DNA from: a virus
Lineage: Duplodnaviria; Heunggongvirae; Uroviricota; Caudoviricetes
Length of the DNA: 27,724 nt
Virus record (IMG/VR): IMGVR_UViG_2617270952_000002
Coordinates: 1 to 27,724 of that record
Reading direction: 5' to 3' (one strand)
In this document: one piece after another, positions 1 to 21,036 of the stretch
Numbering within the stretch: position 1 is the first letter of the stretch
How the letters are laid out: every line of letters starts with the position of its first letter
Notes under the pieces: generated by a model
Database searches by the model: none
Seen by the model: only the letters and a program-made list of their open reading frames with translations
What the model was told of the DNA's origin: nothing
Made by a program: the position numbers and the translations under genes

Positions 1-549
1 CATGGCAACTGCAGTTCACTTACACCGCTTCTCAACCCGGTACGCACCAGAAAATCATTGATATGGCCATGAATGGCGTTGGATGCCGGGCAACTGCCCG
101 CATTATGGGCGTTGGCCTCAACACGATTTTACGTCACTTAAAAAACTCAGGCCGCAGTCGGTAACCTCGCGCATACAGCCGGGCAGTGACGTCATCGTCT
201 GCGCGGAAATGGACGAACAGTGGGGCTATGTCGGGGCTAAATCGCGCCAGCGCTGGCTGTTTTACGCGTATGACAGTCTCCGGAAGACGGTTGTTGCGCA
301 CGTATTCGGTGAACGCACTATGGCGACGCTGGGGCGTCTTATGAGCCTGCTGTCACCCTTTGACGTGGTGATATGGATGACGGATGGCTGGCCGCTGTAT
401 GAATCCCGCCTGAAGGGAAAGCTGCACGTAATCAGCAAGCGATATACGCAGCGAATTGAGCGGCATAACCTGAATCTGAGGCAGCACCTGGCACGGCTGG
501 GACGGAAGTCGCTGTCGTTCTCAAAATCGGTGGAGCTGCATGACAAAGG
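1..549 (+). mobile_element. IS1 fragment (3' part of insA plus insB; right terminus missing, abutting IS30 sequence)
   Basis: Frames translate to IS1 InsA C-terminus and InsB; A6C frameshift motif ttaaaaaac at 138..146; IS1-like sequence stops near 549 where reverse-complement IS30 sequence begins. Confidence 0.85.
3..164 (+). CDS. insA: IS1 InsA, C-terminal part (5' end outside window)
   Basis: Translation ...[46 protein letters not shown] matches remembered InsA C-terminus; stop at 162..164. Confidence 0.8.
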
Positions 550-565
550 GTTTTGTTCGCCTTAA
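83..565 (+). pseudogene. insB: IS1 InsB transposase with altered C-terminus (last codons read into IS30-derived sequence)
   Basis: ORF track 160 aa [21 protein letters not shown]...; matches InsB until ...SVELHDK then diverges (GFCSP*) at the IS1/IS30 junction. Confidence 0.8.
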
Positions 566-1015
566 CCATCCTGATATTTGCTCTGGAGACCATTTCATCT
601 CCAGCTTTTCCAGAACAAGCTTTCGCAATGGTAAATTTTGATCCAGTAAGCACGGTTTTGGCCTTTTCGCCATTCTGTTGGCTCGGTTATTAGCATCAAC
701 AGCTTTGTAATAGCGGCTGCCCCGATTACGCTGAACTTCACGTGAGATCGTCGAAGGACTGCGATTCAGCGCAGTAGCTATCGCACGAATGCTCATTTTG
801 GCTGACAAACCAGCTCGTATCTCCTCGCGCTCAGACAGTGTCAGGTGAGCTACAGCCCGCTTACGCTCATGGGGGTTTTATGCCGCCAGTATCCCTTAAA
901 CATAGTGAAGATCGGGTTTTGAACCCAGGATATTCGCTATTTCACTGAAGCCAGTTCCGTTCTTCCATAGTTCAAAAACAGAGGCTTTTTCCTCTGCTGT
1001 AAATGTTCGTCTCAT
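550..1015 (-). pseudogene. IS30 transposase, N-terminal ~130 codons only, frameshifted
   Basis: ATG at 1015 (minus); track ORF 521..808 covers the downstream part in another frame; C-terminal two thirds of the transposase absent. Confidence 0.75.
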
Positions 1016-1076
1016 TCAAAAAAACTCCGCAACCCCATGTTTTCACATAACTGTTGCGTTGACCAATTGAATCTAC
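550..1076 (-). mobile_element. IS30 fragment (left end and 5' part of transposase gene, inverted; 3' part missing)
   Basis: Minus-strand translation gives IS30 transposase N-terminal region ([17 protein letters not shown]... then ...LSAKMSIRAIATALNRSPSTISREVQRNRG...) with a frameshift near 880-900; terminal sequence ggtagattcaattggtcaacgcaacag (rc of 1050..1076) resembles the IS30 inverted repeat. Confidence 0.8.
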
Positions 1077-1340
1077 CGTAGCCTTTTTTAATATTTCATT
1101 CTCCATTTCAATGCGTTGTAGCTTTTTCCTCAGCTTACGTATTTCGATTTGTTCTGGTGTTATCGGAGAGGCTTTTTGTGTTTTTCCCTGACGCTCATCA
1201 CGCAGTTGTTTGACCCATCTTGTCATTGTGGAAAGGCCAACATCCATAGCTTTGGCGGCATCTGCCACCGTGTATTTCTGGTCAACAACCAGTTGAGCGG
1301 ATTCGCGTTTAAACTCTGCGCTAAAATTTCTTTTTTTCAT
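972..1340 (-). pseudogene. insN: IS911 OrfA (InsN-like) truncated by IS30 insertion; C-terminal residues are read-through into IS30 end
   Basis: [53 protein letters not shown]...; same IS911::IS30 arrangement I recall from the E. coli K-12 chromosome. Confidence 0.8.
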
Positions 1341-1412
1341 TGGAGCACCTGTGTTGTTCTGAGGTGAGCATATCACCTCTGTTCAGGTGGCCAAATTCAG
1401 TGTGCCACTTCA
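1077..1412 (-). mobile_element. IS911 left-end fragment interrupted by IS30
   Basis: rc of 1341..1412 matches remembered IS911 left inverted repeat (tgaagtggcacactgaatttggccacctgaacagaggtgatatgctcacctcag...); orfA follows. Confidence 0.8.
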
Positions 1413-1465
1413 ACGCACCAAAATTCGCAGCTGGTGAGGTATTTGGGCTTCAGGAGGCGTCCGGC

Positions 1466-1630
1466 ATGAAAGGCGTTCTTTTCCGTGCTAAAGACGCAAT
1501 CAAGGAAAAATTCGGCGCTCGCTGGCTGCCAGCGAAGGCGAAGAACAGCGATTTCCCGGGCAACTGGTGGATTATCGAGACAAAACACAACGTGGCGGAC
1601 GTTCTGGCCGTCATCCAACAATACGCATAA
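1466..1630 (+). CDS. hypothetical small protein (54 aa), first gene of a three-gene operon
   Basis: ATG at 1466 preceded by AGGAGG (7-8 nt spacing); the longer track ORF 1340..1630 starts inside the IS911 inverted repeat, so the internal start is preferred. Confidence 0.4.
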   Translation: MKGVLFRAKDAIKEKFGARWLPAKAKNSDFPGNWWIIETKHNVADVLAVIQQYA

Positions 1631-1663
1631 CAGGAGCGCCCGGTTCGCCGGGCGTCGCATAAT

Positions 1664-2104
1664 ATGGTCACACTATCTGATACAATAAAACCGAATAAAA
1701 CATATCTTGAGGCGGTACTCCGTACAGCGTTGTTAGGAAAAACAGAAGACGAATACGTTGATTTCTTCCTGTCAGGGCTACGCGGGCGATTACTAAAAAA
1801 CCCCCGCCTGTACCGCAGCTATGGTCCATACTGGCCGGAAATTAAAAAATTATTACTGGAGCGCGGTTATGGTAATTTCGGTCGTCTCGTTGACCGTGAC
1901 GTTCGCAAAATTTACCGTTATGACCGCCCGGCGCTAACACTCATAGCCGCGACGCTCTACAGCCAGGAGCGTTTTGATAATGGTCAGATATACTCAGCCT
2001 GGCATTTACTGCCAGTGCCTGAAGAAGTTGACGACCAGGACTATGAGTTTGAGTCTTACGATTTGGAAGTTGAAGCCTTAGCACAGGCTGGAGATAAAAC
2101 TTGA
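1664..2104 (+). CDS. hypothetical protein (146 aa) with acidic C-terminal tail
   Basis: Track ORF; 33-bp gap after upstream ORF; no motif recognised by eye. Confidence 0.5.
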   Translation: MVTLSDTIKPNKTYLEAVLRTALLGKTEDEYVDFFLSGLRGRLLKNPRLYRSYGPYWPEIKKLLLERGYGNFGRLVDRDVRKIYRYDRPALTLIAATLYSQERFDNGQIYSAWHLLPVPEEVDDQDYEFESYDLEVEALAQAGDKT

Positions 2105-2349
2105 AAAAGCGATACTACACAGTAAAGCATGGGACGCTACGAGCATTACAAGAGTTTGCTGACAAGCATAACGTTGAGGTGCGCAGGGAAGGGGGAAGTA
2201 AAGCTCTGCGCATGTACCGTCCTGACGGAAAATGGCGGACGGTCGTCGATTTCAAAACAAACAGCGTTCCCCAGGGCGTCCGCGACCGGGCATTCGAAGA
2301 ATGGGAGCAGATCATCATAGATAATGCTCTGCTACTAAATGCTGACTGA
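2101..2349 (+). CDS. hypothetical protein (82 aa), TTG start overlapping upstream stop (TTGA)
   Basis: Track ORF; 4-nt start/stop overlap suggests translational coupling with the 146-aa gene. Confidence 0.4.
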   Translation: MKKRYYTVKHGTLRALQEFADKHNVEVRREGGSKALRMYRPDGKWRTVVDFKTNSVPQGVRDRAFEEWEQIIIDNALLLNAD

Positions 2350-2387
2350 GTTTAATATTACAATATTATCTGGGAGATAAATGCATC

Positions 2388-3122
2388 TTATTTCCCAGAT
2401 GATAACTGATGTTTTGCATATTCACATGGTGTACAATTATAATACTGCCTAAATAGGTACACAAAGTACGATATACTACTAAAACCACAACTTTCTGATA
2501 CTTGTTTGAGGGGGCGGTTTTGCTTTAGTAATTTAATAGCAAAAGCCATCCGTGTATCAAGTAATAACTTACTGAAGGAGGTGTTTTCTAATAATAGTTT
2601 TTTCTTTATTAAACTCTCACTCATGTATAGATAATCAGTTAAATCTCTTAGTTTCCAATGTTTAGATACATCTGAAAGAAATATGCTGCGTACTTTCCCT
2701 GAGAAAGTAGGCATGCCAGACGTAAGAAAAGCTCTAAGGTTGTCAACATCACTAAAAATTGAAAGTAATGAAAAAGTTAAAGCATCCTTAAAATCAGGAT
2801 GTATATGATTCTGGTCACTTATATTATCGATCATCCTGATTAATAAATCAGGATAAGCAAAAGACTTTTTTAGCAAATGTGGGCATTTATCCAGAAGTTG
2901 CTTCCCTTGGTGATTGTGACAAGATAAATAGTTTCTTACAGCACTATCATTAAGTTCGAATTCGATATATTTATCTGAATAGGTTTGTAAGAATTCGCGT
3001 TCAGAATGTTTAAGCAACAGCACATCACCATAATTTAATATTAAGAAATCCTTAAGAAATTGAAAAATTATCGGTTTTTTTATTAGGATGAAGTAACAGA
3101 CTCCTGACATAGCTACCACCAT
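2388..3122 (-). CDS. AraC/XylS-family transcriptional regulator
   Basis: C-terminal tandem HTH region typical of AraC family (...WKLRDLTDYLYMSESLIKKKLL...LLDTRMAFAIKLLKQNRPLKQVSESCGFSSISYFVYLFRQYYNCTPCEY); gene is strongly AT-rich relative to flanks. Confidence 0.8.
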   Translation of the reverse strand: MVVAMSGVCYFILIKKPIIFQFLKDFLILNYGDVLLLKHSEREFLQTYSDKYIEFELNDSAVRNYLSCHNHQGKQLLDKCPHLLKKSFAYPDLLIRMIDNISDQNHIHPDFKDALTFSLLSIFSDVDNLRAFLTSGMPTFSGKVRSIFLSDVSKHWKLRDLTDYLYMSESLIKKKLLLENTSFSKLLLDTRMAFAIKLLKQNRPLKQVSESCGFSSISYFVYLFRQYYNCTPCEYAKHQLSSGK

Positions 3123-3345
3123 TCTAAAGAGGCTTTGAACAAGAATAGAGATACAGCAGCACTGAAATCAAGAAGTTGTGCAAAAAATAAAAATATTGAT
3201 TTGTGTCACAGTTGCTGTTTTTTTATTATTGAATTTTTATCAATTTCACTACAGATAAATAAATTGACATAGTGTGTAACCCCTGTAAATATAAAGGGCA
3301 CTTTATCTGCTAAAGCCAACCAATTTAAAAATAGAGGGTGGGAGC

Positions 3346-4035
3346 ATGGAAGTTATCTACATAGTAGAACCAATCATTTCCACAAGCACTAACAAGTTGA
3401 TAGCAGTGGAAGTGTTGAGCAGATTTTATTCCAACGAGGGGGCTATTCTTTCTACTCAGAAAGTATTGGGTATGTTTACAAGCAAGATGAAGATTAACTT
3501 GCTAAAATCTCAACTTAACACAATAATCAAATATAAGTATTTTTTTGAACGCCATAATATATTATGCTCTATCAATGTAGATTATGATACCTGTTTATAT
3601 ATATATGGCAATAAACAAATTCAAGAACTACTAATAAACAATAAATTTATAGCGATTGAAATATCAGAAAACTATCCTGATTTAAGCGATGAGGATTACA
3701 TCATATCCTTTCTACTGACTTTGACAGATAATGTTTGGCTTGATGATTTTGGAAGTGGTAACGCCACCATGAAAGCATTAATTAAAAATAAATATCATGC
3801 AATAAAACTTGATAAGTCATTTTTTCAAGAGCATATGATTAAGCCTCATTTTGATGTCATTATTAGCAATTTAAAAAAGTTATGTCCGAATATCATCGCT
3901 GAAGGCGTCGAAAACATTGATTGTCATAAGTTATCAAAAGGGATAGGACTATGGGGCGCTCAGGGATATTTTTTCCCATCAATTCCGCTGACGGAGATTG
4001 AGTCCATAGATAGTAAGTGGCTATCAGATTTATGA
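3346..4035 (+). CDS. standalone EAL-domain protein (putative c-di-GMP phosphodiesterase)
   Basis: EAL-fold signature residues visible: EVLSR, N in SINVD, EISE, DDFGSG, KLDK, EGVE, QGY; AT-rich; divergent from the AraC gene across an AT-rich 223-bp intergenic region. Confidence 0.8.
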   Translation: MEVIYIVEPIISTSTNKLIAVEVLSRFYSNEGAILSTQKVLGMFTSKMKINLLKSQLNTIIKYKYFFERHNILCSINVDYDTCLYIYGNKQIQELLINNKFIAIEISENYPDLSDEDYIISFLLTLTDNVWLDDFGSGNATMKALIKNKYHAIKLDKSFFQEHMIKPHFDVIISNLKKLCPNIIAEGVENIDCHKLSKGIGLWGAQGYFFPSIPLTEIESIDSKWLSDL

Positions 4036-4088
4036 GATGCAGAGAGTTAGGATATTGATATGAACATCTAAGCACCTCATTACTGTGC

Positions 4089-4760
4089 TTAAAAGATGTT
4101 ATCCTTACCTGTTAATTTACCTTGAGGAACTTTAGTGAGCTCCATCCGATAAAATGCTTTTATCATATTTACAAATGGCTCATATGGTGAATATTCGTTG
4201 TCTTGTTTAGTAACGGTGTCTGTCATTGTCCTGATGTAGTCTGCGCTTACCACGTTGTTGTATTCTGTTGCGAAGCAGCATAACAACGTCAGAACATGCT
4301 CTGTCGTTATTTCGCTCCAGTTGATGTTGAAAAACTCATCGCCTTTTTTATCGTGTTCGGAATCGAAGATGCTTTGGTGGAGGATGTATTTGCCGGATTC
4401 CTTGCGCGGTAACTTGATCGCTTTCTGGCGTTCCAACTCCTTGTAAATCTGCATTGCTTCAATTAGTACCGGCCTGCCGTTCATGAAGGGATCGCGCAAC
4501 CTTACACGCTGGCCAACTCGACCAGTAATAAAGCTGTTTTCCTCTTCCACCAGCACGATAAAACCCTTTTCCTCTTTTTCTCGCAATTCGCGCAGCAGCT
4601 GGAGTTCCATGTCGCGGCGGCGTTCAGGGTATCTGGTCCGCTCAGCCATTATCAGCTCGTTGTTGATCCATGCAGCAGTCATTGACGCCGGTTTGCCGAC
4701 GTTCATCGAAACAACGCATATTTTCTTATCCATAGCTCCCCCTACAAAAAGAAAAGCCAC
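4089..4760 (-). CDS. hypothetical protein (occupies the position of P1 mat, downstream of ref); alternative start at 4733
   Basis: Track ORF 223 aa; assignment by position only (from memory of P1 order cre-cra-ref-mat). Confidence 0.5.
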   Translation of the reverse strand: MAFLFVGGAMDKKICVVSMNVGKPASMTAAWINNELIMAERTRYPERRRDMELQLLRELREKEEKGFIVLVEEENSFITGRVGQRVRLRDPFMNGRPVLIEAMQIYKELERQKAIKLPRKESGKYILHQSIFDSEHDKKGDEFFNINWSEITTEHVLTLLCCFATEYNNVVSADYIRTMTDTVTKQDNEYSPYEPFVNMIKAFYRMELTKVPQGKLTGKDNIF

Positions 4761-4921
4761 CAGCGGCGGCTTAGCAATACAACTGAAGGTAGCGCCCGGT
4801 ACTCAGACTGTGCCGTCCATGGAATATTTGAAAAGGGATCCATCCGTACCGGGCATGTGATGATTCTGACTGAAGTCACTTGTCAGTTGTCAATTATTTC
4901 AGATTAAAAATAATATATTTA

Positions 4922-5482
4922 TTAGTGCATGATGTTTGCCATCTCATAGGCGTCAGCCAGCAATTCCATCTCTGACTTGTTCAGCAAGGTGAATTCTTTC
5001 TTGCCTCCAACCACACCATCGGCATGAACGGGGACCAGCCAGGGGTATTTTTCTCTTACTTCAGCCGGTGCTGCATGCTGGTGGTGCCATCTACAAAGGG
5101 GCAATTGCTTTTTGTGACAACCCTGCGCGGTACGACCGGAGATATGGTGCAGAGACACCTCTTCAGATATTACTCCATGCATGTAGCAGGCAATGCAGGG
5201 GAGAGTGCCAAGAGCATTGGCGATGGTCCGTTCCTCCGCCGTCGGTGTTCGCCCCTTCAAGCCACGAGATTTTATTTTTACCGCACTTTTCCGCGTTTTG
5301 CTGGCTGGTGGGCGCTCTTTCTGTTTAGCGATACGGCGGTCGATAGAATCCCGCATTTTCTGATATTGCGATTCTCGCCAGGCGGGGTCAGCCAACTTTT
5401 CCCGTTGCCGAGCGATCGCTCGTTCTCTGGCTGCCTTCTGCCACTCGCGGCGCTGTTCAAGTTTTTGTTCGATTGTTTTCAT
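4922..5482 (-). CDS. ref: Ref, recombination enhancement function (HNH-type nuclease)
   Basis: 186 aa; Cys/His HNH-like motif CIACYMHG...SLHHISGRT...CHKKQLPLCRWHHQ; adjacent to cre with a C1 operator upstream as in P1. Confidence 0.85.
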   Translation of the reverse strand: MKTIEQKLEQRREWQKAARERAIARQREKLADPAWRESQYQKMRDSIDRRIAKQKERPPASKTRKSAVKIKSRGLKGRTPTAEERTIANALGTLPCIACYMHGVISEEVSLHHISGRTAQGCHKKQLPLCRWHHQHAAPAEVREKYPWLVPVHADGVVGGKKEFTLLNKSEMELLADAYEMANIMH

Positions 5483-5579
5483 ATGGCAAAAAAAAGCGGC
5501 CTAATGGCCGCCAATGATGTCAAGGAGTGTAGTAATAGCAACGTCTTCGTAGTTGACAAAAACTGCGGTTAAATTATAT

Positions 5580-5596
5580 CAATCAATTAGAGCAAT
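5580..5596 (-). promoter_or_regulatory. C1 operator upstream of ref (overlapping a TATAAT -10 on the minus strand)
   Basis: caatcaattagagcaat; about 14/17 match to rc of ATTGCTCTAATAAATTT. Confidence 0.6.
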
Positions 5597-5729
5597 GGTA
5601 GGTATTTTTTTTATCGCGAATCACATTTTTTTACTTCAGTACCTGTGTGCTATACTCCTTCTTGATTGATTGGATGCGGAATACAAACCCGCTCTTTTGT
5701 GCAGCCTGGCTCCTTGCCAGGCTTTTTTT

Positions 5730-6041
5730 TTATTTCATCATGGAAGCTGTTAACGCTTTGGACCTTGCTGAACTGATTGAAAGGGCATTGTTTACCTTAC
5801 CCAGGAGTTCGCCAAATTCCGCCATCACTCTAGTAAGCCCGCGCCGCGCTTCCTCCTCCGTTGCATTCATCACAAAATGTTCAGCACTCCGCATGCTTTT
5901 AACGGGGAACGCAACAGATATCGAGTCGATATCAGGCATCCTATCGCTCAACTTTACGGTGACAATGACGGCTGGCGACTGAATATTAGTGCTTACAGAC
6001 AGCACTACATATTTTCCGTCGATGTTGAAATCCTTTCTCAT
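5730..6041 (-). CDS. hypothetical protein (103 aa) between cre and ref (position of P1 cra)
   Basis: Track ORF; C1 operator immediately upstream at 6058..6074. Confidence 0.5.
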   Translation of the reverse strand: MRKDFNIDGKYVVLSVSTNIQSPAVIVTVKLSDRMPDIDSISVAFPVKSMRSAEHFVMNATEEEARRGLTRVMAEFGELLGKVNNALSISSARSKALTASMMK

Positions 6042-6057
6042 ATGTCACCATAAATAT

Positions 6058-6074
6058 CAAAGAATTAGAGCAAT
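6058..6074 (-). promoter_or_regulatory. C1 operator-like site
   Basis: caaagaattagagcaat; about 13/17 to operator consensus. Confidence 0.45.
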
Positions 6075-6091
6075 AATTTACGCGTTAATGG

Positions 6092-7123
6092 CTAATCGCC
6101 ATCTTCCAGCAGGCGCACCATTGCCCCTGTTTCACTATCCAGGTTACGGATATAGTTCATGACAATATTTACGTTGGTCCAGCCACCAGCTTGCATGATC
6201 TCCGGTATTGAAACTCCGGCGCGGGCCATATCTCGCGCGGCTCCGACACGGGCACTGTGTCCAGACCAGGCCAGGTATCTCTGACCAGAGTCATCCTTAG
6301 CGCCGTAAATCAATCGATGAGTTGCTTCAAAAATCCCTTCCAGGGCGCGAGTTGATAGCTGGCTGGTGGATGATGGCGCGGCAACACCATTTTTTCTGAC
6401 GCGGCAAAACAGGTAGTTATTCGGATCATCAGCTACACCAGAGACAGAAATCCATCGCTCAACCAGTTTAGTTACCCCTAGGCTAAGTGCCTTCTCTACA
6501 CCAGCGGTGCTAACCAGCGTTTTCGTTCTGCCAATATGGATTAACATTCTCCCACCGTCAGTACGTGAGATATCTTTAACCCTGATCCTGGAAATTTCGG
6601 CTATACGTAACAGGGTGTTATAAGCAATCCCCAGAAATGCCAGATTACGTATATCCTGGCAGCGCTCACTATTTTCCATGAGTGAACGAACCAGGTCGAA
6701 ATCAGTGCGTTCGAACGCCAGCGCCTGTTTTGCACGCTCACCGGCATCAACGTTTTCTTTTCGGATCCGTCGCATGACCAGTGAAACAGCATTGCTGTCA
6801 CTTGGTCGTGGCAGCCCGGACCGACGATGAAGCATGTTTAGCTGGCCCAAATGTTGCTGGATAGTTTTTACTGCCAGACCGCGCGCCTGAAGATATAGAA
6901 GATAATCGCGAACATCTTCAGGTTCTGCGGGAAACCATTTCCGGTTATTCAACTTGCACCATGCCGCCCACGACCGGCAAACGGACAGAAGCATTTTCCA
7001 GGTATGCTCAGAAAACGCCTGGCGATCCCTGAACATGTCCATCAGGTTCTTGCGAACCTCATCACTCGTTGCATCGACCGGTAATGCAGGCAAATTTTGG
7101 TGTACGGTCAGTAAATTGGACAT
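6092..7123 (-). CDS. cre: Cre site-specific tyrosine recombinase
   Basis: 343 aa MSNLLTVHQNLPALPVDATSDEVRKNLMDMFRDRQAFSEHTWK...; matches remembered P1 Cre almost throughout; loxP lies about 420 bp upstream. Confidence 0.97.
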   Translation of the reverse strand: MSNLLTVHQNLPALPVDATSDEVRKNLMDMFRDRQAFSEHTWKMLLSVCRSWAAWCKLNNRKWFPAEPEDVRDYLLYLQARGLAVKTIQQHLGQLNMLHRRSGLPRPSDSNAVSLVMRRIRKENVDAGERAKQALAFERTDFDLVRSLMENSERCQDIRNLAFLGIAYNTLLRIAEISRIRVKDISRTDGGRMLIHIGRTKTLVSTAGVEKALSLGVTKLVERWISVSGVADDPNNYLFCRVRKNGVAAPSSTSQLSTRALEGIFEATHRLIYGAKDDSGQRYLAWSGHSARVGAARDMARAGVSIPEIMQAGGWTNVNIVMNYIRNLDSETGAMVRLLEDGD

Positions 7124-7130
7124 TTAACAC

Positions 7131-7352
7131 TCAGATAATGGTTTTAAGTAAAGTGTACAGGATCGGCTCTGCCTTTACCTGTTTATGGTTCTCGTCATAG
7201 AAACGCCAGCGACCACGCGTGCGTTCTATTTTCTCTTCACCGCGCGATAATGACAGTTGACAACTATCACGATCAAACCCTTTTGCCCGCCAGTAACCAC
7301 GGTTTTTCTCAAGCTCAATATGAGTGGACACTTTAGCAGCTGAATATCCCAT
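7131..7352 (-). CDS. hypothetical 73-aa ORF in the cre upstream region
   Basis: Track ORF; GAGGTG 8 nt before ATG; stop 8 bp before cre ATG. Confidence 0.35.
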   Translation of the reverse strand: MGYSAAKVSTHIELEKNRGYWRAKGFDRDSCQLSLSRGEEKIERTRGRWRFYDENHKQVKAEPILYTLLKTII

Positions 7353-7449
7353 TTTTCACCTCTGATTGATTGGTGGTGCTAAGTGCGCTACGCGAAATCT
7401 GGAGCACTAACACTGCCAACATTTCGCAGATTTTACGTAGCGCAACCTT

Positions 7450-7522
7450 GATCAAATGATCAAGTGATCACTATTTGACCTGATAAGGTATTTAACTGTA
7501 TGGATTTACAGGTAAATTGATC
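7450..7522 (-). promoter_or_regulatory. cluster of four GATC (TGATCA) Dam sites in the cre promoter region
   Basis: GATC at 7450, 7458, 7466 and 7519; cre promoters are known to be Dam-regulated. Confidence 0.55.
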
Positions 7523-7541
7523 ATGTTCAATAACCCTTAAG

Positions 7542-7575
7542 ATAACTTCGTATAATGTATGCTATACGAAGTTAT
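7542..7575. other. loxP: loxP recombination site
   Basis: Exact ATAACTTCGTATA-ATGTATGC-TATACGAAGTTAT. Confidence 0.97.
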
Positions 7576-7618
7576 TAGGTCCGAAGAGGAGTTTACGTCC
7601 AGCTGCGCATAAAAATCA

Positions 7619-7635
7619 AGAATTATTAGAGCAAT
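7619..7635 (-). promoter_or_regulatory. C1 operator
   Basis: agaattattagagcaat; 15/17 to rc consensus. Confidence 0.6.
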
Positions 7636-7694
7636 AAATTTTGAGAGAAAAATCCAACTCCACCAGCCAAAAACTGGATTGTTTTTCATAGTTG

Positions 7695-7722
7695 TTTGAC
7701 AATTGCTCTAATGAATTATAGT
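7695..7722 (+). promoter_or_regulatory. sigma70-like promoter (TTGACA-16-TATAGT) with embedded C1 operator 7702..7718, reading toward coi/c1
   Basis: ttgaca ATTGCTCTAATGAATTA tagt; operator 15/17. Confidence 0.65.
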
Positions 7723-7956
7723 TTTGCCGCCGTTTCGTAATACGACTTTGGATTCACTATTTAATGTGTCTTCAGCGTTGTAGAGCGGCTCAGAAGGAAA
7801 TGAGCAAACAGGGAAACCTTATACAACGGCATTACAGCTATGCATTGCTCATCTTACACACAGCGCAATGTTGTTAGATTACCCCAGCATGGATCATGGG
7901 TGAAACAGTAGGTCAGAGCTTCAGGCTCTGTGTTGTCAATACAGTGAGGCATAATT

Positions 7957-8166
7957 ATGGCTTTCATTCAACCAACCATCGACGACGTTAGACATTGCTC
8001 TAACGCTTTATCTGTAGACCCTGCCGAAACCGACGCTGCCCGCGCCATTGCTGAACACTACTCAAAGATATCCAATCAGGAGTACCGCATCACCCAAGAC
8101 GACCTGGATGACCTCACTGACACAATCGAATATCTCATGGCAACTAACCAGTTAGACTCACAATAA
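7957..8166 (+). CDS. coi: Coi, C1 inactivator
   Basis: 69 aa, immediately upstream of c1; size and position as in P1 immC. Confidence 0.85.
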   Translation: MAFIQPTIDDVRHCSNALSVDPAETDAARAIAEHYSKISNQEYRITQDDLDDLTDTIEYLMATNQLDSQ

Positions 8167-8182
8167 ATGCACTAATAAATCT
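8166..8182 (+). promoter_or_regulatory. weak C1 operator-like site between coi and c1
   Basis: aatgcactaataaatct; 14/17. Confidence 0.35.
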
Positions 8183-8276
8183 ATTATTTTTGTTTGATCC
8201 CTCTATAATATAGGTCAGTAATGACCGGTTTTCTCAGCCGGGCGTTATTGACCATGTCAATTCTGGAGGAGGATCA

Positions 8277-9128
8277 ATGATAAATTATGTCTACGGCGAA
8301 CAACTGTACCAGGAGTTCGTCAGCTTCAGGGATCTCTTTCTAAAAAAAGCTGTTGCACGCGCCCAACACGTTGATACAGCCAGCGACGGTCGTCCTGTAC
8401 GCCCGGTTGTCGTTCTACCGTTCAAAGAAACTGACAGCATTCAGGCTGAAATTGATAAATGGACTTTAATGGCGCGGGAACTGGAACAGTACCCAGACCT
8501 CAATATCCCAAAGACTATTTTATATCCAGTGCCTAACATCCTTCGCGGTGTGCGTAAGGTTACAACTTATCAGACAGAAGCTGTGAACAGCGTCAACATG
8601 ACCGCTGGCCGCATTATTCATCTGATTGATAAGGACATTCGCATCCAAAAAAGCGCGGGGATCAATGAGCACAGTGCGAAATACATAGAGAACCTGGAAG
8701 CAACAAAAGAGCTAATGAAGCAGTACCCGGAGGATGAAAAATTCCGTATGCGCGTACACGGCTTTAGCGAAACAATGCTGCGCGTCCACTACATTTCCAG
8801 TAGCCCTAACTACAATGATGGTAAATCAGTTAGTTACCATGTGCCACTGTGTGGCGTGTTTATCTGCGATGAAACTCTCCGTGATGGAATTATCATCAAC
8901 GGTGAATTCGAAAAAGCAAAATTTAGCCTTTATGACTCCATAGAACCGATCATCTGCGACCGCTGGCCGCAAGCAAAAATATATCGCCTGGCAGATATTG
9001 AAAATGTAAAAAAACAAATTGCCATCACTCGCGAAGAGAAAAAGGTTAAGTCAGCCGCATCAGTTACGCGCAGCCGTAAAACCAAGAAGGGGCAGCCAGT
9101 AAACGACAACCCCGAAAGCGCGCAATAA
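8277..9128 (+). CDS. c1: C1 repressor of lysogeny
   Basis: 283 aa MINYVYGEQLYQEFVSFRDLFLKKAVARAQHVD...; matches remembered P1 C1. Confidence 0.95.
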   Translation: MINYVYGEQLYQEFVSFRDLFLKKAVARAQHVDTASDGRPVRPVVVLPFKETDSIQAEIDKWTLMARELEQYPDLNIPKTILYPVPNILRGVRKVTTYQTEAVNSVNMTAGRIIHLIDKDIRIQKSAGINEHSAKYIENLEATKELMKQYPEDEKFRMRVHGFSETMLRVHYISSSPNYNDGKSVSYHVPLCGVFICDETLRDGIIINGEFEKAKFSLYDSIEPIICDRWPQAKIYRLADIENVKKQIAITREEKKVKSAASVTRSRKTKKGQPVNDNPESAQ

Positions 9129-9160
9129 ATTATGCCCGGCATCAACCGGGCATTCTTCCA

Positions 9161-10279
9161 TTATTCAGCCGCCACCGGTTTTAACAAGCCAGCATCGAGC
9201 AGTTTACGCGTCAACCACTGCTGGCCTTTACCCGTTAATTGAGGCGTCAACCGTATCTGGTAGCCATCTTCATCATCCAGCACCACTTCTTTCACCGTGA
9301 AATACCCCGCGTTGATGTACTGCTGGAACGGCACATTTTTACGTCCACCGGACGCTATCAGGATGCCGTTCTCCCGTAACCAGACAAACAGCGCGTTTTG
9401 TTTAAGTCCAACAACCTTTGCAAAATTCCCAATCAGGATCCCTTTAGCTACTGATACCCGGTCGGCAAAATCGACTTTAGGAGCGGCGGCCACCAGCTGC
9501 TGATTTAGCTGGTGGGCTTTCTGTTCCAGAAGTTGCTTTTGTTCAGCCAGTTCGGCAGCCAGGCGTAGGGCTTCAGGAAGCGTCTGGGGGATTGCGATCG
9601 GTTGCTGTTCTTTTTGTCGGAAGTAGCTGTCTTCCAGTTTTTCAAAGAATGCCCATGCCTGATCGGTTTCGAGCATTTTAGCGTGGCGGGCTGCGCCGCG
9701 TTCTGTCCAGAGGGGGAGTGAGCGAACATTGCGAGCAATTTTTACAGAGTAGTTTAAAGCTACTCTGTGCTTCAACTCGCGCAATGATTCTCCTTCAACT
9801 TTGAAAAAGTGCTTCCCTTCAACAAAGCGTACTTTGTTCTCATGATGATTTTGGCGAATACGGATTGTTTCTGTCCCATACCCTCTAGCAAGAGTCTCGG
9901 TTGTCACTACACGCACTCCCTGCCATTCCAGAACGGGAATTTCATCAGACTGATTCTGAACAACCACCAGCTCCGATTCTTGAACTGAAGGTGCATGAAT
10001 TTTTTCTGATTTAACGTTAGTTGCTTTCATTCTGTGTGCCTCCTTGCGTGCTTCGGCTGCGGCGGTTGCGTAATTCAGATGACCCTGTTCGAGCAGGTAT
10101 TCGCGGATATCAGACAACAGGATACGGTGAACCGCGTTCTTGTCCTTTCTCCGGTAAAGTTGTTTGGTGATCATGAAGTAGTTGGCAATAACGCCTGGTA
10201 TATCCCTGGTACTGATACAGGCAGTGTGCTGTTCAATTGCCTCGATCATCTCTTCACGGGTGACTAATGACGTTCTCAT
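9161..10279 (-). CDS. phage antirepressor-like protein (ORF6N-like central domain, KilA-C/ANT-like C-terminal domain)
   Basis: C-terminal ...VSVAKGILIGNFAKVVGLKQNALFVWLRENGILIASGGRKNVPFQQYINAGYFTVKE... resembles ANT C-terminal domain; central FVEGKHFFKVEGESL...LWTERGAARHAKMLETDQAWAFFEKL resembles ORF6N. Confidence 0.7.
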   Translation of the reverse strand: MRTSLVTREEMIEAIEQHTACISTRDIPGVIANYFMITKQLYRRKDKNAVHRILLSDIREYLLEQGHLNYATAAAEARKEAHRMKATNVKSEKIHAPSVQESELVVVQNQSDEIPVLEWQGVRVVTTETLARGYGTETIRIRQNHHENKVRFVEGKHFFKVEGESLRELKHRVALNYSVKIARNVRSLPLWTERGAARHAKMLETDQAWAFFEKLEDSYFRQKEQQPIAIPQTLPEALRLAAELAEQKQLLEQKAHQLNQQLVAAAPKVDFADRVSVAKGILIGNFAKVVGLKQNALFVWLRENGILIASGGRKNVPFQQYINAGYFTVKEVVLDDEDGYQIRLTPQLTGKGQQWLTRKLLDAGLLKPVAAE

Positions 10280-10497: not shown

Positions 10498-10557
10498 ATT
10501 GGCAGCCTCCTTAGACGTTGGTATGTAACCACCGCAGAAGAGACCAATCTTGCTGGC

Positions 10558-10633
10558 GGTGGACTGTACGGAGTTGGCCTTACTGGCGTCCAAGGTAACC
10601 AGCCTACCCGAAGGTAGCCCCATACAGCCCACC
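10558..10633 (-). ncRNA. candidate structured regulatory RNA (c4-like antisense RNA position)
   Basis: 14-bp RNA duplex possible between 10620..10633 and 10558..10571 that includes two G-U wobbles (pairs only as minus-strand RNA), enclosing a CUACC-UUCG-GGUAG tetraloop hairpin at 10604..10617. Confidence 0.3.
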
Positions 10634-10661
10634 ATTGTAGAGGTGTGCGTGTACGCCGATA

Positions 10662-10686
10662 CAAAAAAAAGACGCGAGCGGCGTCT
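10662..10686 (-). terminator. rho-independent terminator downstream of pacB
   Basis: Hairpin gacgc-gagcg-gcgtc at 10671..10685 followed on the minus strand by a run of 8 T. Confidence 0.6.
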
Positions 10687-10816
10687 GTATCGCCTTAGAC
10701 TTAAGCGGGAGGCCAATCCCGGCACCCGTTTTAATGAGGTGCCTGATAAGCATAAACCGAAAATGCCTCAAGGCGCAAGAGGTCAGGCTCAATGTAACAT
10801 CGGTAGTTAAAAAACA

Positions 10817-15024: not shown

Positions 15025-16587
15025 ATGAAAATGACAAGTATTCAACAACGTGCAGAGCTTCATCGTCAAATCTGGCAAATTGCTAACGATGTCAGGGGTT
15101 CGGTCGATGGATGGGATTTTAAGCAATACGTTCTGGGCGCACTTTTCTACCGTTTTATCAGCGAAAATTTTTCCAGTTATATTGAAGCCGGTGATGACAG
15201 TATCTGTTATGCGAAACTGGATGACAGCGTAATTACTGATGACATTAAAGACGATGCCATCAAAACTAAAGGCTACTTCATCTACCCCAGTCAGCTTTTC
15301 TGCAACGTAGCTGCGAAAGCAAATACTAATGACAGACTGAATGCAGATTTAAACAGCATCTTCGTTGCTATCGAAAGTTCTGCTTACGGTTATCCTTCAG
15401 AAGCTGACATCAAAGGTTTGTTTGCTGATTTCGATACTACCAGTAACCGCCTGGGTAACACCGTTAAAGATAAAAATGCCCGCCTGGCTGCGGTTCTGAA
15501 AGGGGTTGAAGGGTTAAAACTTGGTGACTTCAACGAACATCAGATTGACCTGTTCGGTGACGCCTATGAGTTCCTGATTTCTAACTATGCGGCGAATGCC
15601 GGTAAGTCAGGCGGCGAGTTCTTTACACCGCAACACGTCTCTAAGCTGATTGCACAACTGGCTATGCACGGGCAGACCCACGTTAACAAAATCTACGACC
15701 CGGCAGCAGGATCCGGTTCGCTGTTGTTGCAGGCTAAAAAACAGTTTGATGACCATATCATCGAAGAAGGCTTTTTTGGTCAGGAAATCAACCATACAAC
15801 CTATAACCTGGCACGTATGAACATGTTTTTGCACAACATCAACTACGACAAGTTTGATATCAAGCTGGGTAATACACTGACTGAGCCACACTTCAGAGAT
15901 GAAAAACCGTTTGATGCCATCGTTTCTAACCCGCCGTATTCGGTGAAATGGATTGGCAGCGATGACCCGACGCTGATTAACGATGAACGTTTTGCCCCGG
16001 CTGGCGTTCTGGCCCCCAAATCCAAAGCTGACTTTGCGTTTGTATTACATGCGCTGAACTATCTTTCTGCCAAAGGTCGTGCTGCGATTGTTTGCTTCCC
16101 GGGTATTTTTTACCGTGGCGGCGCGGAGCAGAAAATCCGTCAGTATCTGATTGACAATAACTATGTCGAAACCGTAATTTCACTGGCACCGAACCTGTTC
16201 TTTGGCACCACCATTGCAGTAAACATTCTGGTTCTGTCCAAACATAAAACGGATACCAACGTTCAGTTTATTGACGCCAGCGAACTGTTCAAAAAAGAGA
16301 CTAACAACAATATCCTGACCGATGCCCATATCGAACAGATTATGCAGGTATTTGCCAGCAAGGAAGATGTTGCTCATCTGGCGAAATCTGTCGCGTTTGA
16401 GACCGTTGTTGCTAATGACTATAACCTGTCGGTGAGCAGCTATGTGGAAGCGAAAGATAACCGCGAAATTATCGATATTGCTGAGCTGAATGCTGAGCTG
16501 AAAACCACGGTCAGCAAAATCGACCAGTTGCGCAAAGATATTGATGCGATTGTGGCTGAAATTGAAGGCTGCGAGGTGCAGAAATGA
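15025..16587 (+). CDS. hsdM: type I restriction-modification system methyltransferase subunit HsdM
   Basis: 520 aa; AdoMet motif DPAAGSGS and catalytic NPPY. Confidence 0.95.
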
Positions 16588-17798
16588 GCGAGATGAGTTA
16601 TCTGGAAAAATTGCTGGATGGGGTTGAAGTTGAGTGGTTGCCATTGGGGGAAATAACCAAATATGAACAGCCAACAAAGTATTTGGTAAAAGCAAAAGAT
16701 TATCACGACACATATACCATACCGGTTCTTACTGCCGGAAAAACATTTATTCTTGGATACACAAATGAGACTCATGGTATTTATCAGGCATCAAAGGCAC
16801 CTGTAATAATTTTTGATGATTTCACCACCGCTAATAAATGGGTGGATTTTGACTTTAAGGCAAAATCATCGGCCATGAAAATGGTTACATCATGTGATGA
16901 TAATAAAACCTTACTGAAATATGTTTACTATTGGCTCAATACATTACCAAGTGAATTCGCAGAGGGAGACCATAAACGCCAATGGATTAGTAATTATTCT
17001 CAAAAAAAAATCCCAATCCCCTGCCCGGATAATCCGGAAAAATCCCTTGCCATCCAGTCTGAAATCGTTCGGATTCTGGATAAATTTACTGCACTTACCG
17101 CTGAGCTTACCGCTGAGCTTAACATGCGTAAAAAACAGTACAACTACTATCGCGACCAGTTGTTGAGTTTTAAAGAGGGTGAGGTTGAGTGGAAGACTTT
17201 GGGAGAGATCGGAAAATGGTATGGGGGAGGGACACCATCAAAAAATAAAATTGAATTTTGGGAAAATGGAAGCATTCCATGGATTTCCCCGAAAGATATG
17301 GGCCGAACACTTGTAGACTCTTCGGAAGACTATATAACTGAGGAGGCTGTTCTACAATCGTCAACAAAACTGATTCCAGCAAACTCGATTGCAATCGTTG
17401 TTCGCTCAAGCATATTGGATAAAGTATTACCAAGTGCATTAATAAAAGTACCTGCTACGCTCAATCAAGATATGAAAGCAGTCATTCCTCATGAAAACAT
17501 CTTGGTTAAATATATTTATCATATGATTGGGTCTAGGGGGAGTGATATTCTGCGAGCAGCGAAAAAGACAGGAGGGTCCGTAGCTTCTATTGACAGTAAA
17601 AAATTATTTTCATTTAAAATTCCGGTTCCTAACATCAATGAACAACAACGAATTGTCGAAATACTCGACAAATTCGACACACTGACTAACTCCATCACCG
17701 AAGGTCTTCCGCGTGAAATCGAGTTGCGCCAGAAACAATACGAGTACTATCGTGATTTACTGTTCAGTTTCCCGAAACCTGAAACTGTCAGTAATTAA
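16584..17798 (+). CDS. hsdS: type I R-M specificity subunit HsdS (type IC-like, TAEL repeat in central conserved region)
   Basis: 404 aa; two target-recognition domains separated by ...[23 protein letters not shown]...; overlaps hsdM stop. Confidence 0.9.
17094..17117 (+). repeat. 2x tandem 12-bp repeat (cttaccgctgag) encoding TAEL-TAEL in hsdS
   Basis: Direct tandem duplication read in sequence. Confidence 0.85.
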
Positions 17799-17919
17799 TT
17801 GATCATTGCTACCGATCGGACCACCTTAACACCCGGTCAGTATATAGACTATTTTTTACGCGCCGGAAGTCACCATTACCCCCCTTCCGGCCCTTGCCAG
17901 ACGGCACAAAGGATGCGCT

Positions 17920-20900
17920 ATGACTCATCAGACACACACCATTGCTGAATCCAATAACTTTATCGTTCTTGATAAGTACATCAAAGCTGAGCCAACAGGC
18001 GACAGCTACCAGAGCGAATCGGACCTGGAACGCGAACTGATACAGGACCTACGGAATCAGGGCTATGAATTTATATCCGTAAAATCACAGTCGGCGATGC
18101 TGGCCAATGTTCGGGAACAGCTTCAGAACCTCAATGGTGTGGTGTTTAATGACAGCGAGTGGCGGCGTTTCACGGAGCAGTATCTGGATAACCCGAGCGA
18201 TGGCATTCTGGATAAGACCCGTAAAATCCATATCGACTATATTTGCGACTTTATTTTTGATGACGAGCGTCTTGAGAACATCTATTTGATAGATAAAAAG
18301 AATCTCATGCGCAATAAGGTGCAGATTATCCAGCAGTTTGAACAGGCGGGTTCTCACGCTAACCGTTATGACGTAACTATCCTGGTTAATGGCTTACCGC
18401 TGGTACAAATCGAACTGAAAAAACGCGGCGTGGCGATTCGTGAGGCTTTCAACCAGATACATCGTTACAGTAAAGAGAGTTTTAACAGCGAAAATTCCCT
18501 GTTTAAGTATCTGCAGCTGTTCGTCATTTCCAACGGCACTGATACCCGTTATTTTGCCAACACGACAAAGCGCGATAAAAACAGTTTTGACTTCACCATG
18601 AACTGGGCGAAATCAGACAATACGCTGATTAAAGACCTCAAAGACTTTACCGCCACCTTTTTCCAGAAACATACTCTGCTTAATGTTCTGGTGAACTACA
18701 GCGTTTTTGACAGCAGTCAGACACTACTGGTAATGCGACCGTACCAGATTGCCGCCACCGAGCGCATTCTGTGGAAAATTAAGAGTTCCTTTACAGCGAA
18801 GAACTGGTCAAAACCGGAAAGCGGTGGGTATATCTGGCACACTACCGGTTCTGGTAAAACCCTCACCAGCTTTAAAGCCGCGCGTCTGGCAACAGAGCTG
18901 GACTTTATTGATAAAGTCTTCTTTGTGGTCGACAGGAAAGACCTCGATTACCAGACCATGAAGGAATATCAGCGTTTTTCGCCAGACAGCGTCAACGGCT
19001 CGGAAAATACCGCAGGCCTTAAACGAAATCTGGATAAGGACGATAACAAAATTATCGTCACTACTATTCAGAAACTCAATAACCTGATGAAAGCAGAAAG
19101 CGATCTGCCTGTATATAATCAGCAAGTGGTGTTTATATTTGATGAATGCCACCGCAGCCAGTTTGGAGAAGCGCAGAAAAACCTGAAGAAGAAATTCAAA
19201 CGCTATTATCAGTTTGGTTTTACCGGCACCCCTATTTTCCCGGAAAACGCCTTAGGCTCAGAAACAACCGCCAGCGTATTTGGTCGTGAATTGCATTCGT
19301 ATGTAATTACCGATGCGATTCGTGACGAAAAAGTGCTCAAATTCAAGGTGGACTACAACGATGTGCGGCCACAGTTTAAGTCTTTAGAGACAGAAACTGA
19401 CGAGAAAAAACTGAGTGCGGCTGAAAATCAGCAGGCGTTTCTTCATCCCATGCGTATTCAGGAAATCACGCAATATATTCTGAATAATTTCCGCCAGAAA
19501 ACCCACCGTACCTTCCCTGGCTCAAAAGGTTTTAATGCTATGTTGGCAGTGAGCAGCGTGGATGCCGCGAAAGCCTATTATGCGACGTTTAAACGGTTAC
19601 AAGAAGAAGCCGCTAATAAATCGGCTACCTATAAACCGCTGCGTATTGCGACAATCTTCTCCTTTGCCGCCAATGAAGAACAAAATGCCATTGGTGAAAT
19701 TTCCGATGAAACTTTTGATACCAGCGCAATGGACAGCAGTGCTAAAGAGTTTCTGGACGCTGCAATTCGTGAATATAACAGCCATTTTAAAACTAACTTT
19801 AGCACCGACAGTAACGGTTTTCAGAACTACTATCGTGATTTAGCCCAGCGGGTTAAAAATCAGGATATCGATCTGCTAATTGTCGTGGGGATGTTCTTAA
19901 CCGGCTTCGATGCTCCAACATTGAACACGCTATTCGTCGATAAAAACTTACGTTATCACGGCCTGATGCAGGCATTTTCCCGCACCAACCGCATTTATGA
20001 CGCCACTAAAACCTTCGGTAATATCGTCACTTTCCGGGATCTGGAACGCTCAACTATTGATGCCATAACGCTGTTTGGTGACAAAAACACCAAAAATGTG
20101 GTGTTAGAAAAGAGTTATACAGAGTATATGGAAGGCTTTACTGATGCTGCTACAGGTGAAGCTAAACGCGGCTTCATGACAGTAGTTTCAGAACTGGAAC
20201 AACGGTTCCCTGACCCTACCAGTATTGAAAGTGAAAAAGAGAAGAAAGACTTCGTTAAACTGTTTGGCGAATACCTGCGTGCCGAGAACATCCTGCAAAA
20301 CTATGATGAATTTGCCACGCTAAAAGCCCTGCAACAAATCGATCTTAGCGATCCTGTTGCGGTAGAAAAATTCAAAGCAGAACATTATGTGGATGATGAA
20401 AAGTTCGCTGAATTGCAAACAATTCGTCTCCCTGCTGATCGCAAGATTCAGGATTATCGTTCTGCCTATAACGATATTCGCGACTGGCAGCGCCGTGAGA
20501 AAGAAGCTGAGAAAAAAGAGAAATCAACCACTGACTGGGATGACGTAGTTTTTGAGGTCGATTTGCTGAAGTCTCAGGAAATAAACCTGGATTATATCCT
20601 TGGACTGATTTTCGAACACAACAGACAAAATAAAGGCAAGGGCGAAATGATCGAAGAGGTCAAACGCTTAATTCGTTCAAGCCTGGGAAACCGTGCTAAA
20701 GAGGGCCTGGTGGTCGATTTTATTCAGCAAACGAACCTGGATGATTTACCGGACAAAGCCAGCATCATTGACGCATTCTTTACGTTTGCTCAACGCGAAC
20801 AGCAACGTGAAGCAGAAGCATTGATAAAAGAAGAAAATCTCAATGAAGATGCAGCAAAACGCTATATTCGCACGTCTTTAAAACGCGAATATGCCACCGA

Positions 20901-21036
20901 AAATGGCACAGAATTAAACGAAACATTACCAAAACTTAGTCCGTTAAATCCGCAATATAAAACGAAAAAACAGGCAGTTTTCCAGAAAATCGTCTCGTTT
21001 ATTGAGAAGTTTAAAGGCGTAGGCGGAAAAATATAG
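17920..21036 (+). CDS. hsdR: type I R-M endonuclease/translocase subunit HsdR
   Basis: 1038 aa; PD-(D/E)xK-like IELKK, Walker A TGSGKT, DEAH-like FDECH. Confidence 0.95.

Follow-up and report, generated by a model that had tools for sequence, protein, structure and literature searches.

The window analysed here, that is, the whole stretch of 27,724 nucleotides of the virus record IMGVR_UViG_2617270952_000002, is a P1-like phage-plasmid. Between its backbone genes lxc and mat it carries an AT-rich accessory cassette (2346..4223; 1,878 bp) with two divergently transcribed genes, one for a regulator of the AraC/XylS family and one for a compact stand-alone EAL protein, which is a predicted phosphodiesterase (PDE) acting on cyclic diguanylate (c-di-GMP). 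The two open reading frames (ORFs) lie 223 bp apart, at 2388-3122 on the minus strand (244 aa) and at 3346-4035 on the plus strand (229 aa). The fifth codon of the regulator ORF (MSGVCY...) is where its homologues begin, and the gene probably starts at 3110, within an ORF that is open to 3122, to give a YdeO/Rns-like protein of 240 aa (2388..3110, minus). The AT-rich stretch from 3111 to 3345 is a putative shared divergent control region, and a GAGGGTGGGAG ribosome-binding site stands ahead of the ATG of the EAL gene. On the left, the junction of the cassette coincides with the stop codon of lxc (bof; 2101-2349, plus) and is followed by a terminator-like hairpin with a 17-bp stem, found by a terminator scan at 2364..2404, which lies between the convergent lxc and AraC genes and overlaps the AraC stop codon. 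On the right, the EAL gene converges on mat, whose P1-homologous part covers 4224-4760 (minus) and whose diverged 3' end, i.e., its last ~45 codons (4089..4223, minus; guanine-cytosine content (GC) 0.333), is linked to the cassette. A scan with Rfam gave no RNA family within the cassette.

The P1-like nature of the element is documented by the backbone genes cre, c8, ref, mat, lxc, ulx and c1 and by ten matches to the C1-operator consensus of P1, where 0.18 would be expected by chance. An initial annotation of this DNA had described a divergent pair of an AraC regulator and a stand-alone EAL protein carried by a phage-plasmid. Both parts of this description are borne out, the former by Pfam matches and by ORFs at the same coordinates, the latter by the backbone genes, the C4 RNA described below and the C1-operator-like sites.

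Composition and Site of the Cassette

The same annotation had considered the two genes far more AT-rich than the flanking backbone and had taken this as a sign of horizontal acquisition. A windowed calculation agrees on the first point (GC 0.32 vs 0.475-0.50 in the flanks). In a sliding window, GC is 0.30-0.33 over 2500-4000 and 0.44-0.54 in the flanks, and the exact values are 0.321 for the AraC gene, 0.314 for the intergenic region, 0.323 for the EAL gene and 0.323 for the whole block, as compared with 0.499 (1413-2345) and 0.475 (4224-7558) on the two sides. The GC of third codon positions follows the same trend, at 0.27-0.33 in the cassette genes vs 0.49-0.55 in cre, mat and ref. The cassette block has the lowest GC among all equal-sized windows of the 27.7 kb (z = -6.0), the other 1,878-bp windows having a mean of 0.466, a standard deviation of 0.024 and a minimum of 0.414.

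Comparison with P1 (NC_005856) by blastn sets the borders. Homology is found only at window positions 1413-2345 and 4224-7558, and the foreign block is therefore 2346-4223, slightly wider than the two ORFs as it takes in the last ~45 codons of mat. At the protein level, this C-terminus of Mat is colinear with P1 Mat and strongly diverged, and the DNA encoding it is AT-rich (GC 0.33). The right junction thus looks like a recombination end-point inside mat, with the exchange of the cassette bringing its own Mat C-terminus. The cassette stands in place of P1 coordinates 3337-9753, where P1 has res, mod, the 3' end of mat and, in the reference sequence, also IS5. The res-mod region has been described as the low-GC 'variable region 1' of P1-like phage-plasmids (PMC9603915). 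Indeed, the EcoP1I res/mod genes of P1 occupy the same lxc-mat slot and are likewise low in GC; in sequence and function they are unrelated to the cassette. Non-backbone DNA between backbone genes, an alternative occupant of the site and a deviant composition are thus found together, and the cassette is horizontally acquired foreign cargo. The second point of the annotation is in this way supported, as the block lacks homology to P1, replaces res/mod and is found as a unit on IncFII plasmids as well.

The EAL Protein

The EAL ORF matches the Pfam EAL family (PF00563, 2.3e-18) over profile positions 18-233 of 236. All the active-site motifs that had been listed as retained are present, namely E22-V-L-S-R26, N77, E105-I-S-E108, D133-D134-F-G, K154, E186-G-V-E189 and Q206-G-Y, and in an alignment the residues E22/R26/N77/E105/E108/D133/D134/K154/E186/E189/Q206 coincide with those of YahA/PdeL, which is an active enzyme. 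The same set is intact in the nearest relatives. When 1.84 billion cluster representatives were scanned exhaustively with HMMER, 5,958 hits were returned, and the pattern ELRNEEDDKEEQ is kept in the query and in its ~25 best full-length relatives, if conservative non-core changes are allowed. An alignment of 21 sequences of the family, reaching down to 23% identity, contains 16 invariant columns, the catalytic ones included. Of the eight core positions, none is changed in the window protein, as against three in STM1697 and five in YdiV. The AlphaFold2 model is confident (predicted local distance difference test (pLDDT) 93.3, predicted template modelling score 0.89), and in Foldseek it reaches template modelling (TM) scores of 0.72-0.88 across EAL structures, with ~0.8 for the active EALs YahA, TBD1265 and RocR. 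In NCBIfam the best model is PdeH (PRK11596, 1.3e-27, nearly full length), whose equivalog cut-off is not reached (96.7 vs 190 bits). Taken as a whole, the protein is probably catalytically intact and is predicted to be a c-di-GMP phosphodiesterase.

These sequence comparisons place the window protein in a compact clade of EAL-only proteins that is specific to Enterobacterales. Its members come from E. coli plasmids, Klebsiella, Brenneria and Pantoea, and most of them are catalytically intact. The cluster of Salmonella STM1697 (P0088) is about the 31st hit of the query (102.7 bits). The nearest relatives of STM1697 include intact proteins that are close to the query (P0061, 42% identity; P0069 from Pantoea, 37%), and STM1697 would seem to be a side branch of the same clade that has degenerated; the nearest relatives of YdiV are all degenerate. 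The initial annotation had raised the prospect of a protein closest to degenerate YdiV-type proteins. This holds among solved structures, where STM1697 and YdiV come first, and fails for the sequence itself, where the catalytic residues are intact and closer clusters are intact as well. The rank of the two among structures depends in part on what has been crystallised. The label 'ydiV' in the GenBank record OQ595196 finds no support, as the catalytic residues lost in YdiV/STM1697 are intact here, and PdeU1-3, EAL proteins named earlier in E. coli, are other proteins, with differing motif strings (EVLIR/ELTE/DDFGTGYAT).

EAL relatives at 46-50% and at 35% identity stand at the ends of chaperone-usher fimbrial operons, and a search upstream of these fimbria-linked relatives gave no PapX/SfaX-like gene. 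A relative at 43% identity (P0059, E. coli plasmids) lies between two Rob-like AraC/XylS genes and beside an autotransporter gene, which is a second, independent association of the EAL clade with AraC/XylS regulators. The Rob-like neighbours have GyrI-like domains (plasmid contigs 2161-4872). The fimbrial and adhesin neighbours of the relatives suggest that both genes of the cassette trace to regulatory genes of adhesin loci.

Among characterised proteins, SfaY/PdeY of extraintestinal pathogenic E. coli, whose gene closes the S-fimbrial operon, offers a close parallel: it, too, comes from Enterobacterales, is compact and EAL-only, keeps the catalytic set, and has 'EP' in place of 'QP' and a DDFGSGNA loop 6. 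Their identity is just 23-24%, and unlike SfaY the window protein is encoded outside a fimbrial operon, paired with an AraC regulator and carried by a phage-plasmid. SfaY/PdeY is presented as a functional stand-alone PDE in PMC6385356 and PMC5635171, both of which cite Sjostrom 2009. PdeH (YhjH), the main motility-associated PDE of E. coli, is also a stand-alone EAL protein and, judging by the PdeH-like protein P0025, also lacks 'AE'; a PdeH-like protein of Pantoea is ~27% identical to the window protein, which has no N-terminal extension. The gene for PdeH belongs to the flagellar regulon, whereas the EAL gene of the window lies on a mobile element. STM1697 and YdiV (RflP), which act against FlhD4C2, have the same compact architecture and have lost catalytic residues, reading EIHNQEGDKGEQ and EIHNLEGNMGDQ, respectively, where the window protein reads ELRNEEDDKEEQ. 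Neither of the two binds or hydrolyses c-di-GMP, and both repress flagella by binding FlhD (PMC5622320).

The Regulator and the Control Region

The regulator contains the C-terminal double helix-turn-helix of the AraC/XylS family, with Pfam matches to HTH_18 (1.1e-11; 45.2 bits, cut-off 33.6) and HTH_AraC (3.9e-9; 36.9 bits, cut-off 26.6). In NCBIfam it matches YdeO over the full length (PRK09940, 1.5e-43) at 149.2 bits, under the equivalog cut-off of 348, and parts of GadX (6e-28, query 112-238), HilD (3.6e-23) and HilC (9.5e-19), the last two from query ~115-120. Profile matches to PDB entries include the DNA-binding domain of GadX (2.9e-28), Rns (2.9e-27, profile positions 33-232, nearly full length), CsvR (1.6e-26, nearly full length) and ToxT (2.9e-13, nearly full length). 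By these matches, the protein appears to belong to the AT-rich, horizontally acquired AraC/XylS group that controls acid resistance or pili. It shares with YdeO, GadX and Rns-CsvR-ToxT the AT-rich gene, the horizontal acquisition, a length of ~240-265 aa and the C-terminal double helix-turn-helix, and it stays under every equivalog cut-off. Its AlphaFold2 model has a pLDDT of 63, with the N-terminal domain lacking a confident model.

A homologue at 58% identity adjoins K88-type fimbrial genes on IncFII plasmids, and homologues at 28-33% identity are found in lambdoid phages. A further homologue, at 49% identity, is chromosomal; it lies (5001-5708) ~3.5 kb from motA (TIGR03818, 1.6e-115), and a link of the regulator group to flagellar loci is possible. 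This chromosomal gene is preceded by an unannotated ORF of 206 aa with no family match, which was checked as a hidden EAL protein and is not one.

Within the cassette there is no C1 operator, as against ten elsewhere in the window. The repeats that a search of the control region returned are all weak and AT-rich, and none makes a convincing operator. Blocks of the region are conserved between cassettes of the P1 type and of the IncFII type.

Distribution, Selection and Decay

The cassette is found in 183 PLSDB plasmids, nearly all from Escherichia (179/183), and in four phage records. Among 5,426 complete E. coli genomes it is present in 146, at 148 plasmid and six chromosomal places, and intact copies are kept in ~120 of them. 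The ulx-lxc backbone of P1 is found in 699 of the same genomes. Thus, a P1-like element occurs in ~13% of complete E. coli genomes, and about one in five of these elements has the cassette (146 vs 699 genomes). The divergent AraC-EAL pair also occurs on IncFII plasmids, where protein identity is 83% for the regulator and 67% for the EAL protein and where the cassette adjoins RelB/ParE and repA, the spacer blocks being conserved. Linkage of the two genes is found only in these P1-type and IncFII-type cassettes. In one of the records, OP279344.1, titled 'Escherichia phage P1 isolate del res del mod', the res/mod slot is in fact occupied by the AraC-EAL cassette (98% identity); the record seems to represent a natural relative of P1 of the cassette type, and not a simple deletion.

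By the Nei-Gojobori method, the ratio of nonsynonymous to synonymous divergence (dN/dS) is 0.08-0.11 for the regulator and 0.12-0.29 for the EAL protein, with dS up to ~1.6, and purifying selection therefore maintains both genes. In a comparison with plasmid p88_1577-1 (NZ_CP074805.1), dS is 0.07 for the EAL gene and 0.45 for the regulator gene; this inequality points to a mosaic cassette, with recombination between cassette alleles within 1.9 kb. In parallel, many plasmid copies are interrupted by insertion sequences (IS), namely IS5, IS1, IS3, IS903B and ISKpn26, and in OP279344 an internal stretch of 7 aa is missing from the regulator. Several further plasmids have IS5-family insertions in one of the two genes or between them, and in the AW1.7 plasmid (NZ_CP073625.1, 9312-10506) IS5 lies 36 bp upstream of an intact EAL gene. 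Such insertions near the EAL gene could represent decay or IS-driven activation of the EAL gene.

A Proposed Regulated c-di-GMP Phosphodiesterase as Phage-Plasmid Cargo

The reading that we favour, and to which we give an even chance, is that of a self-contained cargo cassette in the lxc-mat slot that is expressed in the lysogen and encodes a regulated c-di-GMP phosphodiesterase. Both genes would be transcribed outwards from the shared AT-rich control region. As each of them converges on a backbone gene, the cassette would be insulated from phage transcription, and the lack of a C1 operator suggests that it can be expressed in the plasmid-prophage, i.e., lysogenic, state. Under some condition the regulator would activate expression of the EAL gene and probably also of itself, most likely by countering silencing of the AT-rich DNA by H-NS; the involvement of H-NS is suggested by the AT-richness together with the general behaviour of this group of regulators. 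Once produced, the EAL protein would cleave c-di-GMP to pGpG and reduce the pool of the host. As exemplified by the role of PdeH in the c-di-GMP signalling of E. coli, low c-di-GMP favours motility and reduces curli and cellulose; a lysogen with an active cassette may thus be shifted towards motility and away from a curli/cellulose matrix. The initial annotation had also seen the AraC protein as the EAL gene's own regulator and had considered that the pair could change biofilm or motility of the host. In our reading, enzymatic activity, control of the EAL gene by the AraC protein, the role of H-NS and the phenotype of the host are inferred, whereas the identity of the cassette, its slot, foreign composition and distribution, the purifying selection, the intact catalytic set and the confident EAL fold are shown by the analysis.

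Several observations weigh against this explanation. The nearest solved structures of the EAL protein are the non-catalytic FlhD-binders STM1697 and YdiV, both by sequence (8e-29 and 1.4e-19, YahA giving only 1e-8) and by fold (YdiV TM 0.88, STM1697 0.84/0.91, root-mean-square deviation ~2 A). Residues 8-9 are 'EP' and not 'QP', and the 'AE' glutamate after EVLSR is missing, both 'QP' and 'AE' being part of the consensus for active EAL domains given in the supplement of PMC5635171. Loop 6 reads DFGSGNATMKAL, i.e., DFGSGNAT vs the canonical DFG(T/A)GYSS, so that DFG-x-G is retained and the remainder differs. In Pantoea ananatis, several EAL-only proteins cut motility when overexpressed (bioRxiv 10.64898/2026.05.12.724576), and a sigma-70 scan of the control region gave 12 sites vs 10.2 expected, which is not above chance. 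The link between the two genes is not obligatory: phage SJ1 retains the EAL gene alone, and in the AW1.7/2273-PO3 lineage IS5 and a 335-bp deletion (window 2975-3309) have removed the 5' end of the regulator gene together with almost the entire control region and left the EAL ORF intact. In phage vB_EcoM-Ro157c2YLVW, the EAL gene itself is frameshifted. As to the active site, the non-canonical features are also seen in SfaY/PdeY and/or in the PdeH-like protein P0025; since SfaY shares 'EP' and P0025 also lacks 'AE', neither feature rules out activity of the window protein.

Alternative Explanations

The alternative that deserves most attention, unlikely as we consider it, is that the EAL protein works mainly or additionally as an anti-FlhD4C2 factor of the STM1697/YdiV type, which binds FlhD and represses flagellar class II genes, with catalysis being dispensable or secondary. 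The two readings predict opposite phenotypes, as FlhD binding would make lysogens less motile. STM1697 and YdiV are indeed the best PDB matches in both sequence and structure (TM 0.84-0.88), and STM1697 has as its nearest relatives proteins of the same compact clade whose catalytic residues are intact, so that FlhD binding could predate the loss of catalysis. Moreover, EAL-only proteins of P. ananatis lower motility on overexpression, PdeS being described in the same preprint as YdiV-like with conserved active-site residues, and deeper relatives end fimbrial operons, where repression of motility would be the expected logic. On the other hand, the entire clade shows clear constraint on the catalytic residues, which one would not expect of a protein that only binds a partner. 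The 11 FlhD-contacting residues of STM1697 (list from PMC5622320), mapped to the window protein through a phmmer alignment, give a divided picture. F160, L172, L173 and V147, which form the hydrophobic core of the interface, and K167 correspond to F159, V171, I172, I146 and K166, all of them kept or conservatively replaced, and L136 and Y180 correspond to F135 and L179. The polar contacts K175 and H176, together with V115 and L116, are replaced by S174, N175, S114 and D115, and the key residues F155, F181 and A184 of YdiV correspond to I146, a gap and V171. As the retained hydrophobic positions are shared with active EALs such as YahA, they are not diagnostic. A combination of the two activities is a long shot in our estimate: the window protein would then be an intermediate of the STM1697 lineage between PdeH-like enzymes and the degenerate anti-FlhD4C2 factors, both cleaving c-di-GMP and binding FlhD4C2, with a Rns/YdeO-type sensor switching the flagella and matrix of the host. 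If so, it might serve to exclude flagellotropic or matrix-dependent competitors or to tune gut colonisation by the lysogen.

The regulator rather than the EAL protein may be the real payload, as a YdeO/GadX/Rns-type activator that cross-activates regulons of the host or of co-resident plasmids (acid resistance, fimbriae), with the EAL gene as one target or a passenger. Prophage-encoded AraC-like regulators of enterohaemorrhagic E. coli, PatE and PsrA/PsrB, do control the GAD system, and the window regulator shows a full-length match to YdeO (1.5e-43), besides GadX (6e-28) and Rns/CsvR (~1e-27). It is also the more conserved of the two proteins (dN/dS ~0.1; 83% vs 67% identity between the P1 and IncFII types), and its homologues stand beside K88-type fimbrial genes (58%, IncFII) and in lambdoid phages (28-33%). 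We regard this as rather improbable all the same, as the regulator is missing or truncated in several plasmid lineages that keep an intact EAL gene, promoter and repeat scans of the control region gave no target sites, and the score is far under the YdeO cut-off (149 vs 348 bits), so that the protein is not YdeO. Less probable still is a neutral or decaying hitch-hiker, left over from the regulatory locus of plasmid-borne fimbriae and at present without function for the phage-plasmid. Disrupted copies are frequent, with the five IS types, the Ro157c2YLVW frameshift and the OP279344 deletion, and both genes have relatives in fimbrial loci, the fimbrial genes being absent here; dN/dS of 0.08-0.29 over dS up to ~1.6, full conservation of the catalytic residues and intact copies in ~120 complete genomes argue for genes that are being kept. 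A role in counter-defence, in which the EAL protein would degrade cyclic-dinucleotide immune signals, e.g., those of the cyclic-oligonucleotide-based antiphage signalling system (CBASS), and not housekeeping c-di-GMP, seems very improbable to us. The slot is flanked by anti-restriction functions (ulx, darB) and is otherwise occupied by a defence system, and there is a weak match to PDB 6ifq, a 'cyclic di nucleotide phosphodiesterase' (2.7e-4). However, the same module resides on non-phage IncFII plasmids, its relatives lie in fimbrial operons, it has its own lysogeny-type regulator with no phage promoter or operator, and nothing indicates a substrate other than c-di-GMP. As to the pair being a defence system itself, a PADLOC scan gave no match for either protein.

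Novelty and Significance

The cassette is a common, already annotated and functionally unstudied member of well-known kinds, and not a new kind of system. RefSeq labels the two products 'EAL domain-containing protein' and 'helix-turn-helix domain-containing protein', and PHROGs places both only in families of unknown function. In the literature on P1-like elements and phage-plasmids we found no paper that discusses the pair, with most subscription journals lying outside the coverage of the search. It is of interest mainly for how often it fills the res/mod slot of P1-like elements and for its nearness to the STM1697 lineage. If the EAL protein is active, a widespread transducing phage-plasmid would alter the c-di-GMP pool of its host and consequently motility, curli/cellulose biofilm and possibly colonisation, a lysogenic-conversion trait distinct from the antibiotic-resistance cargo that is usually surveyed in P1-like elements. 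The window protein also offers a handy test case for the origin of the anti-FlhD4C2 factors STM1697 and YdiV from active compact EAL enzymes.

Other Features of the Element

To the right of the cassette, the whole mat gene (4089-4760) is followed by ref (4922-5482; Pfam RecA_dep_nuc, 3.2e-49), c8 (5730-6041) and cre (6092-7123), all on the minus strand, and by c1 (8277-9128, plus); to the left, ulx (1664-2104, plus) precedes lxc. Rfam detects the P1 C4 antisense RNA (75.9 bits) and, directly adjoining it, isrK (60.8 bits) at 10552-10742 on the minus strand, in the immI region, upstream of an antirepressor-like gene (9161-10279). A complete type I restriction-modification system, hsdMSR, lies at 15025-21036 (plus), in a region of somewhat lower GC (~0.39-0.45), and encodes HsdM (520 aa), HsdS (404 aa) and HsdR (1038 aa, with an EcoR124_C domain). 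The element thus has a type I system elsewhere, while its canonical slot for the type III res/mod genes is taken by the AraC-EAL cassette. At the left end of the window (1-1412), darB is cut short by several clustered IS remnants, namely IS1 InsB (83-565), an IS30-like helix-turn-helix fragment (521-808, minus) and an IS3-family OrfA (972-1376, minus). Only the last ~217 bp of darB are left, with homology to P1 beginning at 1413, and plasmids of strains AW1.7 and 2273-PO3 share this IS/darB junction.

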